This document shows, piece after piece, positions 20,934-25,751 of a DNA stretch of 31,867 nucleotides. The notes beneath the pieces are model-generated. The model was not told the DNA's origin. It saw only the letters and a program-made list of their open reading frames with translations, and made no database searches. This stretch comes from Promethearchaeota archaeon (GTDB taxonomy: Archaea > Asgardarchaeota > Lokiarchaeia > Sigyniarchaeales > SOKP01). A program made the position numbers and the translations under genes. The stretch spans positions 1-31,867 of the forward strand of contig JBHLMP010000044.1 in assembly GCA_048938025.1 (NCBI GenBank). Direction: 5' to 3'. Each line of letters opens with the position of its first letter. Positions within the stretch are counted from its first letter, which is position 1.

Positions 20934-21743
20934 ATGGAAGGAATAAGAATTATCAAACATATAGATCTTTCTAAAGAAGATTTTAATAACCCAATTTGTA
21001 TCTTGGGAATGCCTGGCATTGCTGATGTTGGTAAATTTGCATTAGATTCGTTAATAGGCCAGCTTGATGCTAAGAATTTTATGGATATTATTTTTGATGA
21101 TTATCCAGCAGGAGCAATTGTAGATGACAGTATTTTATCTGCTCCTAAAGCGGAAATTCTCTATTGGAAAGATCCAAATAATTTGAGAGATATTATATTA
21201 ATTACTGCTGATGCTCAAAGTTTAACTCCTAAAGGAATATATAAAATATCAAATTTTCTTACAAAAATCATTATGCACTGTGGGATAAAATTAATTGTAG
21301 CTTTAGGAGCTTATCCTGTAAGTAGTCGAATGCTTAACTCAAGAATTCCAAAAATATTTGCTAGCTCTACAGATCGTGAGTTATTAGAGAAATATTTAAT
21401 AAAAGATAAATGTGAGAAGATCCAAAAAGGAGTCATTATTGGTGCAAATGGTTTAATTCCTACATTGGCAAAGGCAAGATTTAATGTTGATGGTTTAGTT
21501 TTTCTTGCTGAAACTGATAATATTGCAATGGTTAACGAGGATATTACTGATTTGAAAGCATCCATTACACTTTTAGAAATGCTTAAGAAGTCATTTACAT
21601 TACCAATTAAAAAGAAATATTCTTTAGAGAATATTGAAAATATAACAAAAAATCTTCAAATCAAACGAGATCAATTAGAAAAGGATCTTGAGACTCTCCA
21701 AATTATTGATACTGATGATAAAAGAAAATCATTATATATTTAA
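20934..21743 (+). CDS. PAC2-family proteasome assembly chaperone (Pba-like) with C-terminal HbYX motif
   Basis: GMPGIADVGK, ALGAY, G.IIGANGLI and LAET..D.KAS motifs. Ends ...SLYI. Confidence 0.88.
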   Translation: MEGIRIIKHIDLSKEDFNNPICILGMPGIADVGKFALDSLIGQLDAKNFMDIIFDDYPAGAIVDDSILSAPKAEILYWKDPNNLRDIILITADAQSLTPKGIYKISNFLTKIIMHCGIKLIVALGAYPVSSRMLNSRIPKIFASSTDRELLEKYLIKDKCEKIQKGVIIGANGLIPTLAKARFNVDGLVFLAETDNIAMVNEDITDLKASITLLEMLKKSFTLPIKKKYSLENIENITKNLQIKRDQLEKDLETLQIIDTDDKRKSLYI

Positions 21744-22076: not shown

Positions 22077-23006
22077 TTATACATTTAATTCAAAATTGAG
22101 ATGATTTAGAAGTTCTTTATATCTATTCCGAATAGTTGCTTCAGTCACACCAGCAGTTAAGGAAATTTCTTTTTGTGTTCGACGCTCACCTTCCTGAATA
22201 GCTGCTACGTATAAAGCAGCTCCTGCTAAACCTGTTGGGGCTTTCCCTGCTGTGATACGATGTTTTTTTGCTAATTTCAAAATTGAAGCAGCCCTGTTTT
22301 GAGTTCTTCCTGAAAGTTTTAATTCAGCGCAGAATCTTGGAATAAAATTTATTGGGGAAGATACTTTAATATTAATTTTTAATTCTCCTAAAATTAACCT
22401 ATAACATCGTGCAACCTTCCTTTTATCAACTGATGCAAATTCAATGAAATCATCAAGAGTTTTTGGTATGATATTTAATCTACAAGATAAGTAAATCGAT
22501 GCTATTAACATAGCTTCTATTGATCTTCCCCTAATGAGATTTTTTTGAGCCATCTTTCTGTAAATATGAGCTGAAGATTCTTTTAAATCTTTAGATAAGT
22601 TTAGTTGAGAAGAAAATCTATCTAATTCATTCATTGCATACGCTAAATTCCTATCGATTGATTTATTTGTCCTTGTTCTTACATGCCATTTCCTTAAACG
22701 GTATACTTCTGCTTTCATTTTAGGGCTTATAGTTTTTCCAAAAGCGTCTTTATTTTTCCAGCCTATCATTGTACTTAATCCTTTATCATGTAAAGTTAGA
22801 GTTGTTGGTGCTCCTACTCTAACTTTCTTGTTTGCTTCTTCTGATGTAAATGCTCGCCATTCAGGACCGGAATCGATGATTCTTTGTAATAATACCAGCC
22901 CACATACATTACATATCACCTCACCCCGAGACTCATCTGAAATTAAATTTTTATTGCCACATTCTGGGCATAAATTTAAATTTTTTTGAGTCATTGAAAG
23001 ATCCAA
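22077..23006 (-). CDS. tfb: Transcription initiation factor B (start TTG 23006 or ATG 22994)
   Basis: CPECG..GEVIC..CGLV Zn ribbon, GPEWRAF, HDKGLST, RGRSIE and GVTEATIRNRYKEL. Confidence 0.98.
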   Translation of the reverse strand: MDLSMTQKNLNLCPECGNKNLISDESRGEVICNVCGLVLLQRIIDSGPEWRAFTSEEANKKVRVGAPTTLTLHDKGLSTMIGWKNKDAFGKTISPKMKAEVYRLRKWHVRTRTNKSIDRNLAYAMNELDRFSSQLNLSKDLKESSAHIYRKMAQKNLIRGRSIEAMLIASIYLSCRLNIIPKTLDDFIEFASVDKRKVARCYRLILGELKINIKVSSPINFIPRFCAELKLSGRTQNRAASILKLAKKHRITAGKAPTGLAGAALYVAAIQEGERRTQKEISLTAGVTEATIRNRYKELLNHLNFELNV

Positions 23007-23174: not shown

Positions 23175-23639
23175 ATGCGACATTTTTATAAGACTCATGG
23201 AAGACACTGCTATCTTCGTTCTTTTCAAACAAAATGCCCAAAATGTGGTGTAGATGTGCTATATTGGGAATGTACGCATGGTAGTAAAGTATTTTTTGAT
23301 TACCCACCCTATGGAAAATTAGTAAGGCATTTTTGTCGATATCAAACAGCTAGGTTTGATAGAAAAAGAAAATTTCCGATAGTAGTTAAAATTCCAAAGG
23401 GTTTATTAGAAAATAGATCACCAAGTTGTCCAGTATGTGGGAAATTGTTCAAAAATGATAAAGATCTTAATAATCATTTAGAAACTCTAAGAAAGGATGA
23501 TAAGCCCCATAAAACATTTTTTAAAAATAAATTTGTATTTCAAAATGACAGTTGGAATAGCAATCAAAAAAACATTGATCAAATTAAACTTTATGATAAA
23601 CCAAAATTTGGTAGAATTAATATTAAAAAAAAGAATTGA
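23175..23639 (+). CDS. Multi-zinc-finger protein (N-terminal Cys/His domain plus C2H2-like finger)
   Basis: CPKC..CTH..HFC cluster and CPVCGKLF-x5-L-x2-H pattern. Confidence 0.7.
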   Translation: MRHFYKTHGRHCYLRSFQTKCPKCGVDVLYWECTHGSKVFFDYPPYGKLVRHFCRYQTARFDRKRKFPIVVKIPKGLLENRSPSCPVCGKLFKNDKDLNNHLETLRKDDKPHKTFFKNKFVFQNDSWNSNQKNIDQIKLYDKPKFGRINIKKKN

Positions 23640-23767: not shown

Positions 23768-24379
23768 ATGCCAGTTGATCCAGAATCTGCGATTCATAAT
23801 TTAATGCAAGCTGAACCATCAATTATTGCTGCTGTAGTGATCCGTGGAAGGGATATTGTCTATTCTACAGATAATTGGGATATAAGTGCTGATGTTGGAA
23901 GAGTTGTATCAAGTTGGACCTCTATGAATGCTCAATTCATTATGATATCAGGAGTGAAATATTCACTTCTGCAGTGCACTGCAGAAAGATTAGTTGCCAC
24001 TTCAATTAGAGGTGAAGGCCATATTGTTGGGGCAAAAGATGAAGAGCATAAAGTTATTACTTATGTTGAACCAGATGGTCCAATGAATGCAGCATATATG
24101 GATACTGCAAGAACGTTGGCATCAATGAGCTCCCAAGGTCAATACATGAATGGAAATACTCAGTTAGGTGCTAAAGGTGCTGCAATGGGAGGGATAACCA
24201 AAGCAAGTACAAATATTGATCCTCATCTAAAAGGTGAGATTCAATCATTTTTAGAGTGGCTTAAAGATACTGAAGGTCTTTCAGGATATATCAGTTATTA
24301 TCTTCAACAAAACAATACCCAAATAATTACTGAATTATCAAAAATTTATAATGAATTAAGACAAGTTTTTGGTGTTTAA
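23768..24379 (+). CDS. Asgard (Loki-type) profilin with about 80-aa C-terminal extension
   Basis: IVYSTDNWDIS, ISGVKYSLLQCTAERLVATSIRGEGHIV and ITYVEP match the Loki-profilin pattern as I recall it (TENWNIS...IQGIKY...TEERKIGTNITGKGHV...AYVNP). Confidence 0.82.
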   Translation: MPVDPESAIHNLMQAEPSIIAAVVIRGRDIVYSTDNWDISADVGRVVSSWTSMNAQFIMISGVKYSLLQCTAERLVATSIRGEGHIVGAKDEEHKVITYVEPDGPMNAAYMDTARTLASMSSQGQYMNGNTQLGAKGAAMGGITKASTNIDPHLKGEIQSFLEWLKDTEGLSGYISYYLQQNNTQIITELSKIYNELRQVFGV

Positions 24380-24451: not shown

Positions 24452-24910
24452 GTGAGATTTATGGGAGACAAAAAAGAAAAAAGTTACTTAAAAAAAATGA
24501 AAAATCTTTTTGCTAAAAAAAAAAAACCAAAAAATCAACATGGGAGTATCTATTATCCATCAGAAGAAGATGTAGAATTACAGATTCCAACTATACCAGA
24601 AGCACCAAAACAAAAAGAAAAATTTGCTTTAGATTCTCCTGATATAACACCCGATGTACTTGAAAGAATAAGGAAAGTAGAATCTCCTGATACGAGAGTT
24701 GTTTTAGTAAATTGTGAAAGATGTAAAGCAGTTATACCTATACCTATCCTAAAAAGGATGGTTTTAAGTTCAAATTTACCAGTAGTTCCTGTAAGTTATG
24801 TTCATATGAACCTCCAAAATAAGGATCAACATTGCATAACAGTACATATTGATCACGACTTTGATATTCGAAGACAAAGGATATCTGATGTTATTCTTTC
24901 TTCTGATTAA
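24452..24910 (+). CDS. Hypothetical protein with polybasic N-terminus and C-terminal CxxC...H...H Zn domain (likely start ATG 24461)
   Basis: SYLKKMKNLFAKKKKPK, then CERC...VSYVH...QHCITVHID..F.IR. Confidence 0.7.
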   Translation: MRFMGDKKEKSYLKKMKNLFAKKKKPKNQHGSIYYPSEEDVELQIPTIPEAPKQKEKFALDSPDITPDVLERIRKVESPDTRVVLVNCERCKAVIPIPILKRMVLSSNLPVVPVSYVHMNLQNKDQHCITVHIDHDFDIRRQRISDVILSSD

Positions 24911-25388: not shown

Positions 25389-25751
25389 ATGAAGCTCTTA
25401 GCAGAAAAGGATATAAAAATTGAAGATATTACAATTTATTTAAATCTTTTTCAATTACATAAAAGTTATCTTTTACTTATATCAGATCAAGAAAATATGG
25501 GAATTGGAAATGTAACATTAGGAACACCCCCTCCTATTGAAGGTTTAAAATCAACCACAGCATCATATAGTTTGTTTGGTGTAGACCCAAAACTCTTAAG
25601 TACATTGATAGCTGAAAGAGCTTCAAATATTCTTAAAGCACCTGTATTGCTTCTCTTATTTCTGAAAATTAAGAAAAAGGATAAGGAAATAGCTAAACCA
25701 CTTATAGATTTCATAAATAACGTCTTAAATGCTATTAAAGAAAAAAAATAA
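25389..25751 (+). CDS. PAC4/PSMG4-like proteasome assembly chaperone
   Basis: 120 aa with YLLLISD...IGNVTLGTP...SLFG...LSTLIAERAS.ILKAPVLL, resembling the PAC3/PAC4 fold. Confidence 0.65.
   Translation: MKLLAEKDIKIEDITIYLNLFQLHKSYLLLISDQENMGIGNVTLGTPPPIEGLKSTTASYSLFGVDPKLLSTLIAERASNILKAPVLLLLFLKIKKKDKEIAKPLIDFINNVLNAIKEKK

Follow-up and report, generated by a model that had tools for sequence, protein, structure and literature searches.

A long Asgard profilin with a conserved, order-specific C-terminal helical module as a candidate docking adaptor

Introduction

Eukaryotic formin FH1 regions, Ena/VASP and WASP recruit profilin–actin through polyproline, an arrangement in which the tether belongs to the partner and profilin binds its proline runs. 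The villin headpiece exemplifies a different design: actin-regulating cores are followed by a flexible linker and, as the very last part of the chain, a small helical domain. For Asgard archaea, the question is how profilin–actin is guided to the places where filaments grow. The available part of PMC8410842 reports no polyproline binding by the Loki-1, Loki-2 and Odin profilins, and that of PMC9433394 states that nucleation machineries ‘have yet to be discovered in Asgard archaea’. Extensions of Asgard profilins are discussed for the N-terminus in a survey of 256 such proteins (PMC8410842, available part). For another actin regulator, Loki 2DGel, the accessible text of PMC9433394 describes a linker and Zn domain that is restricted to Loki and always C-terminal; it recurs in multidomain proteins of unrelated kinds, exists as a small protein in its own right, and showed no association with F-actin.

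Here we describe a 203-residue protein encoded in the window (the whole 31,867-nucleotide stretch of Promethearchaeota archaeon DNA that was analyzed), which an earlier note, made from the sequence alone, had read as a profilin fused to an extra helical domain. In profilin sequence and predicted fold it is like 5ZZA chain P, 5YED, 5ZZB, 7PBH and 6YRR. Those chains have a single domain and are 121–148 aa long, in line with what the note had said of characterized Asgard profilins, whereas in the 203-aa protein a linker and a further domain of 54 aa (hereafter, the module) follow. It is a variant profilin architecture, with an extra domain, and not a single-domain protein of 120–150 aa. In eukaryotic polyproline recruitment the tether is on the partner; here, by contrast, the tether and the putative docking domain are part of profilin itself, and by analogy the two arrangements possibly play the same logical role of bringing profilin–actin to an assembly site.

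The design also parallels the Loki 2DGel ‘Link-Zn’ arrangement, as far as the available text of PMC9433394 describes it: in each case an actin regulator is extended by a long linker that leads to a small domain, C-terminal and restricted to its lineage, which is reused in other proteins and occurs free-standing. The small domains themselves are unlike one another. The 2DGel of the window’s own genome ends in a (CxxC)2 zinc motif, whereas the module is all-helical and lacks this motif, and we found no sequence relation between the module and the Loki 2DGel Zn domain. The two systems have a design in common, not an ancestry.

Results

A three-part protein

The protein is encoded by one ATG-initiated open reading frame of 203 codons plus stop, with the linker and C-terminal sequences that the earlier note had quoted (Table 1). 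A search of a 5.8-billion-protein collection returned 652 homologs at E ≤ 1e-3 among 714 scored candidates, and the best 120 of these 652 are 188–212 aa long and cover 94–100% of the query at 65–100% identity, which excludes a chance reading frame. Where names are given, the homologs are hypothetical proteins from Promethearchaeota- or Lokiarchaeota-type metagenome bins. The start codon is correctly placed, since the N-terminal MPxDPE sequence is kept across the family alignment of 33 sequences. Pfam assigned no family to the 203-aa protein, even at E ≤ 10, and NCBIfam returned only noise.

An AlphaFold2 (AF2) model of the whole protein, built from the alignment of 33 family members, supports an anatomy of profilin, linker and helical module. 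Residues 1–120 assume the helix, strands, helix order of profilins with pLDDT values of 76–88 per block, pLDDT falls below 50 over residues 124–150, and three helices follow (residues 152–166, 171–180 and 184–201). The succession of a Gly/Ala/Ser-rich linker and a helical module, which had been proposed from the sequence, is thus also what the model predicts.

Table 1 Coordinates of the long profilin, its parts, its neighbors and related loci. Unprefixed coordinates are positions in the window.
Feature	Coordinates	Strand	Basis or remark
PAC2-family protein	20934-21743	+	E 3.5e-27
Transcription factor B, divergent neighbor	22077..23006	-	TFIIB repeat E 5e-42; TFIIB zinc ribbon
154-aa zinc-finger/zinc-ribbon protein, upstream neighbor	23175..23639	+	Weak C2H2-type matches below curated cut-offs
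Whole ORF, long profilin ‘paralogue 1’	23768..24379	+	ORF list and homologs
Profilin domain, residues 1-121	23768..24130	+	PDB phmmer, AF2, Foldseek
Disordered Ala/Ser/Gly-rich linker, residues 122-149	24131..24214	+	pLDDT, identity, composition
Small motif at linker start, residues 122-135	24131-24172		Two invariant residues
C-terminal three-helix module, residues 150-203	24215..24376	+	AF2 alone, identity; no known family
152-aa uncharacterized Asgard-family protein, downstream neighbor	24452..24910	+	No Pfam family
Weak PAC4-like match	25389-25751	+	E 0.002, below cut-off
Second long profilin, 215 aa, profilin and module, contig C86	L006:1489-2136	-	Profile
169-aa Ras-family GTPase, contig C86	L006:2482-2991	+	Divergent from second long profilin
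Free 53-aa module-only protein, contig C41	L007:1495-1656	-	Profile E 1.6e-13
241-aa proline-rich protein, own genome contig C10	L002:575-1300	+	No Pfam family
Actin paralog	L002:1489-2610	+	Directly downstream of proline-rich protein
Lokiactin gene of own genome (Lokiactin-region frame)	L001:3-872	-	290 aa present; cut at contig end
Lokiactin-region frame	L001:1374-2345	+	
Lokiactin-region frame	L046:1501-2646	+	
Lokiactin-region frame	L046:2787-3869	+	
Ras-family GTPase, proline-rich linker, module, genome G267	L072:3480-4538	-	352-aa intact ORF
Ras-family GTPase, proline-rich linker, module, genome G230	L073:2614-4038	+	474-aa intact ORF

An Asgard profilin domain

In phmmer searches of the PDB, residues ~6–121 matched the Odin profilin (5zza, E 4.9e-13) and the Thor profilin (7pbh, 3e-10) ahead of Loki profilin-1 (5yed, 3.9e-7) and Loki profilin-2 (5zzb, 1.2e-6). 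The claim that the N-terminal residues are a Loki-type profilin thus holds for the profilin identity and fails for the Loki type, the domain being closer to the Odin and Thor proteins. Foldseek placed 5zza_P first (TM(target) 0.89, rmsd 1.5 Å, 30% identity), followed by other Asgard profilins and then by yeast, amoeba, plant and human profilins. There were 45 PDB matches at E ≤ 0.001, and those listed are profilins, a poxvirus profilin-like protein or engineered profilin chimeras; roadblock, longin and GAF domains, the folds that the earlier note had named as the case against a profilin, are absent among the matches listed. By sequence and predicted fold, residues 1–121 are a genuine Asgard profilin, and this identity makes the 203-aa protein a putative actin-monomer binder of the Odin/Thor type.

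The protein does not reach the gathering score of the Pfam profilin family PF00235, and its distant module-bearing relatives score 20–25 bits against a cut-off of 25. We do not count the miss against profilin membership because this branch is poorly captured by the Pfam model. Aligned to 5yed, the stretch after NWDIS is shorter by six residues, in two 3-residue gaps that may or may not be the published ‘Loki-loop’; the earlier note had pointed to this shortening relative to Loki profilin-1, and the same stretch is also shorter than in the Loki-profilin-1-like paralog of the protein’s own genome.

A disordered, variable linker

Across the 33 family members the linker is 25–33 aa long with a mean pairwise identity of only 34%, and its composition is dominated by alanine (19%), serine (17%) and glycine (15%). 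At its start lies a small motif (residues 122–135) in which Y126 and G134 are invariant in all 33 members, and a Y-M...Q-[LMF]-G pattern resembling it is visible in some distant members. As a sequence pattern, this motif is a candidate that may act as a short linear binding motif.

A linker of this length would allow the module to reach any face of the profilin domain on the same chain, and the module could in principle be an intramolecular regulator that folds onto the profilin domain and masks or tunes its actin- or lipid-binding surface until released. Conservation of the motif at the linker start would suit such a mechanism. However, the interdomain gap ranges from ~14 to ~145 aa in distant family members, the whole-chain model predicts no confident packing between the parts (pTM 0.54, which is weak evidence), and the module is retained without a profilin domain, both by GTPases in which that domain was lost and in a free-standing protein of 53 aa (see below). 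We regard intramolecular regulation as quite improbable.

A conserved three-helix module

When residues 147–203 were folded alone by AF2 from a diverse 37-row alignment, the module again formed three helices, with a pLDDT of 95. Its mean pairwise identity of 83% is the highest in the protein, compared with 75% for the profilin domain and with the much lower value of the linker (33 members). The extra C-terminal helical domain of the earlier note is therefore upheld by both measures, and the predictions support a helical domain that folds by itself, is strongly conserved and is tethered flexibly to the profilin. It is acidic (pI 4.75, net charge −3), and its sequence contains no cysteine.

Searches for known relatives of the module were uniformly unproductive. 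Foldseek returned no match in the PDB, and a wide VIA-align comparison with 48,161 chains gave a best Z of 5.5, a single chain at Z ≥ 5 and top rows consisting of unrelated helical segments. The ESM Atlas gave no usable match for the module, and a PDB search with its sequence profile gave only weak ones (best E 2.7e-4), with no single matched stretch passing. Pfam searches of 22 module sequences reached a best E of 0.018, with no family matched by more than two members, and NCBIfam has no family for the module.

The module resembles the villin headpiece (PF02209) in its placement, and one alternative is that it forms a second, headpiece-like actin-binding site, through which profilin would be held along the side of filaments or the module would touch the bound monomer. 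Such a site would match the architecture, in which a flexible linker leads to a C-terminal domain on proteins that regulate actin (two profilins and a gelsolin-bearing fusion). The very high conservation of the module would likewise be in keeping with a highly conserved partner such as Lokiactin, whose relatives are 79–95% identical. There is also a precedent in the available text of PMC7444086, which hypothesizes an actin side-binding C-terminal extension for Thor 1DGelX; homology of domain X to the module is possible but unsupported, the module profile having no significant match in the gelsolin-bearing frames of the window’s own genome. Against such a site, none of the 22 module sequences matched PF02209 at E ≤ 10. 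Moreover, Lokiactin (pI 5.2) is acidic like the module, the module is also found on GTPases and an LRR protein, and the analogous Loki 2DGel Zn domain is reported to lack F-actin association (PMC9433394, available part). On balance, a headpiece-like site seems to us rather unlikely.

Reuse of the module on other proteins

The earlier note had called for a survey of where else the C-terminal module occurs. A phmmer search of residues 122–203 against 1.84 billion cluster representatives returned 49 proteins, of which five were set aside. Four giant proteins (P0121, P0137, P0142 and P0160) were summed-repeat artifacts in which each repeat scores no more than ~10 bits, and in the fifth (P0169) the module part was not matched at all. 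For the 44 real representative clusters that were kept, architectures were called with local profiles and with Pfam, the latter on 24 of the 49 proteins.

Complete profilins precede the module in 14 of the 44 clusters and partial profilins in four, and 19 consist of short proteins or fragments. In four clusters the module is joined to a Ras-family GTPase, and in one of these four a gelsolin repeat and the first part of a profilin come next. The remaining architectures are represented once each: a module that precedes a proline-rich stretch and a profilin domain; a short profilin remnant followed by an unassigned stretch and the module (P0131); and an LRR protein that ends in the module (P0168). 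Besides profilins, then, the proteins that carry the module include Ras-family GTPases, one with a gelsolin repeat and one with LRRs, and the module also exists as a free 53-aa protein.

Two of the GTPase fusions are intact ORFs in genome assemblies, with lengths of 352 aa (G267) and 474 aa (G230). Directly before its module the 352-aa fusion retains a short remnant of a profilin domain, which implies that it derives from a profilin–module gene in which the module was kept and the profilin lost. In the 474-aa fusion, CxxC...HxC zinc-knuckle-like motifs flank the module on both sides. Homology between the CCHC-like knuckle of the GTPase fusions and the 2DGel Zn domain was considered but is not claimed, as the motifs differ.

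Eukaryotic small GTPases carry a C-terminal hypervariable region and a lipid anchor at the position that the module occupies in these fusions. By this parallel the module, which in the Ras-family GTPases comes last, behind a long and variable linker, might be a membrane or lipid anchor that holds profilin and GTPases at the cell envelope, much as C-terminal lipidation does for eukaryotic small GTPases. That Asgard GTPases are reported to be without a lipid anchor (PMC10933270, available part) would suit such a role. Against an anchor, the module is predicted to be a compact globular bundle and not an amphipathic helix, and its net charge is negative. We consider a membrane anchor very improbable.

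Module genes and their distribution

The window’s own genome has three module genes, which encode the 203-aa profilin, a second long profilin of 215 aa and the free 53-aa protein. Between the two long profilins, identity is 40% over the profilin part and 60% over the module. Besides these, the genome encodes short profilins with a single domain, at least two in number (126 and 137 aa), and its gelsolin-bearing frames gave no significant match to the module profile. In all 12 loci sampled, the 53-aa mini-protein has a DEAD-box helicase as a neighbor, and in 11 of the 12 a DnaJ-type CXXCXGXG zinc protein lies beside it as well.

Positions conserved across the three paralog groups are mostly hydrophobic (FLEWI, GL, I, L, IY and F). 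Hydrophobic conservation of this kind is more readily explained by a common fold than by a common binding surface and does not indicate one common receptor. The pattern suggests a shared fold with group-specific surfaces, and heterotypic assembly or separate partners would fit the conserved positions better than a single receptor common to all three groups.

To map the distribution of the module, we used a module-only profile over 400 genomes of the phylum. It was found in 152 of the 153 other genomes of the window’s order (133/134 in family f1, 1/1 in f2, 14/14 in f3 and 4/4 in f4), in none of seven genomes from other families of the class, and in one of the 239 remaining phylum genomes, the last being a marginal match (E 3e-4). 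Genomes that carry the module usually have two or three copies, the typical set of three being the two long profilins and the mini-protein. A profilin-domain profile, used as a control, matched 347 of the 400 genomes, including all seven from the other families of the class. The module is thus confined to one archaeal order, with one marginal exception in 239, whereas profilin is phylum-wide. With the mini-protein as query, 140 of the 154 genomes of the order were matched (f1, 126/134; f3, 12/14; f4, 0/4); the matches listed are mostly frames of 49–87 aa, together with a few weaker ones on profilin-fused modules, and the single f2 match is such a profilin-fused module.

Gene neighborhood

The neighbors of the long profilin are conserved in 30 orthologous loci, the best-scoring loci of the module-profile survey (29 from family f1 and one from f3): transcription factor B is syntenic with profilin in all 30, the zinc-finger protein in 28 and the 152-aa protein in 27. 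The nearest Atlas cluster of the 152-aa protein is unnamed and archaeal (Promethearchaeota). The zinc-finger protein, profilin and the 152-aa protein may form an operon. Conserved neighbors across these loci being a zinc-finger protein and an uncharacterized protein, the neighborhoods indicate no partner for the profilin. Near the profilin, the window also encodes a PAC2-family protein and a weak PAC4-like match, PAC2 and PAC4 being homologs of eukaryotic proteasome-assembly chaperones.

At the second long profilin, a divergent 169-aa Ras-family GTPase raised the idea of a GTPase effector. Conserved linkage between the two genes was rejected, as the pair occurs in only 3 of 20 sampled loci in addition to the window’s own genome.

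Actin genes and a proline-rich protein

Elsewhere in the genome, a 241-aa protein with 16% proline and long PPxxP-type runs is encoded directly upstream of an actin paralog. Pfam assigns it no family. Its C-terminal 25 residues, which end in an LKKI-containing helix and form a tail that looks WH2-like, are near-invariant in three of three same-genus loci (L002, L048 and L050), with one substitution in one locus, and in each of these loci the protein adjoins an actin paralog of 373 or 374 aa. From its sequence, the 241-aa protein is a candidate proline-rich actin-assembly factor. Its position beside an actin paralog leaves room for proline-based recruitment and counts against the suggestion, made in the earlier note, that the module stands in for polyproline.

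The Lokiactin gene of the genome is cut at a contig end; the part that is present is 98% identical to a 381-aa gene of a same-genus genome (G189). A HEAT and LRR protein lies directly downstream of Lokiactin in both genomes.

Discussion

The combination seen here, a flexible tether and an autonomous, constrained, lineage-specific domain that is reused on other proteins and also occurs free, is characteristic of adaptor or docking domains. We propose that the module is an order-specific docking or targeting adaptor that localizes profilin–actin or makes it multivalent, a reading that we hold about equally likely to be right or wrong. In this mechanism, a disordered tether of 25–33 residues would join an Odin/Thor-type profilin to a 54-residue three-helix domain, and the module would dock profilin, and hence profilin-bound actin monomers, onto a conserved cellular partner. 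The partner might be other module-bearing proteins, such as the second long profilin, the 53-aa mini-protein and, in some lineages, Ras-like GTPases, or it might be a common receptor. Docked in this way, profilin–actin would be delivered locally or in multivalent form. Both the binding of a partner by the module and the localized actin assembly that would follow from it are steps that we infer.

Evidence gathered since the earlier note, namely the reuse of the module and its free form, favors a tether or adaptor role, because the same domain is shared by a second profilin, Ras-family GTPases, gelsolin-bearing and LRR proteins and a free 53-aa protein. A more specific version of docking would have the modules bind one another, homotypically or heterotypically, and thereby wire profilin–actin to Ras-like GTPase signaling and to the second profilin, with the 53-aa protein serving as a cap or competitor. 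We consider this particular wiring unlikely, though not far-fetched.

To our reading of the literature, the architecture appears to be new. A full-text search turned up no account of a profilin that carries this domain at its C-terminus, although some Asgard profilin papers were beyond its reach and may show the long form, and the accessible parts of 10.1101/2025.11.30.690169, PMC10933270, PMC7444086, PMC9834061, 10.64898/2026.10.28.762692, PMC8410842 and PMC9433394 do not describe the module architecture. What appears to be new, prior mention being possible, is a profilin carrying an undescribed, order-specific domain of adaptor type.

More broadly, the most conserved part of this long profilin is an unannotated, docking-type domain that nearly every sampled genome of the order possesses. 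At 54 aa, the module offers a clonable handle on actin regulation in an Asgard lineage. Under the more specific wiring, the module would represent an Asgard-specific form of recruitment for actin assembly, doing the job that the polyproline tracts of formin, WASP and VASP do in eukaryotes. If the module does serve recruitment, actin regulation in this lineage would have an adaptor layer of its own that arose independently from that of eukaryotes.
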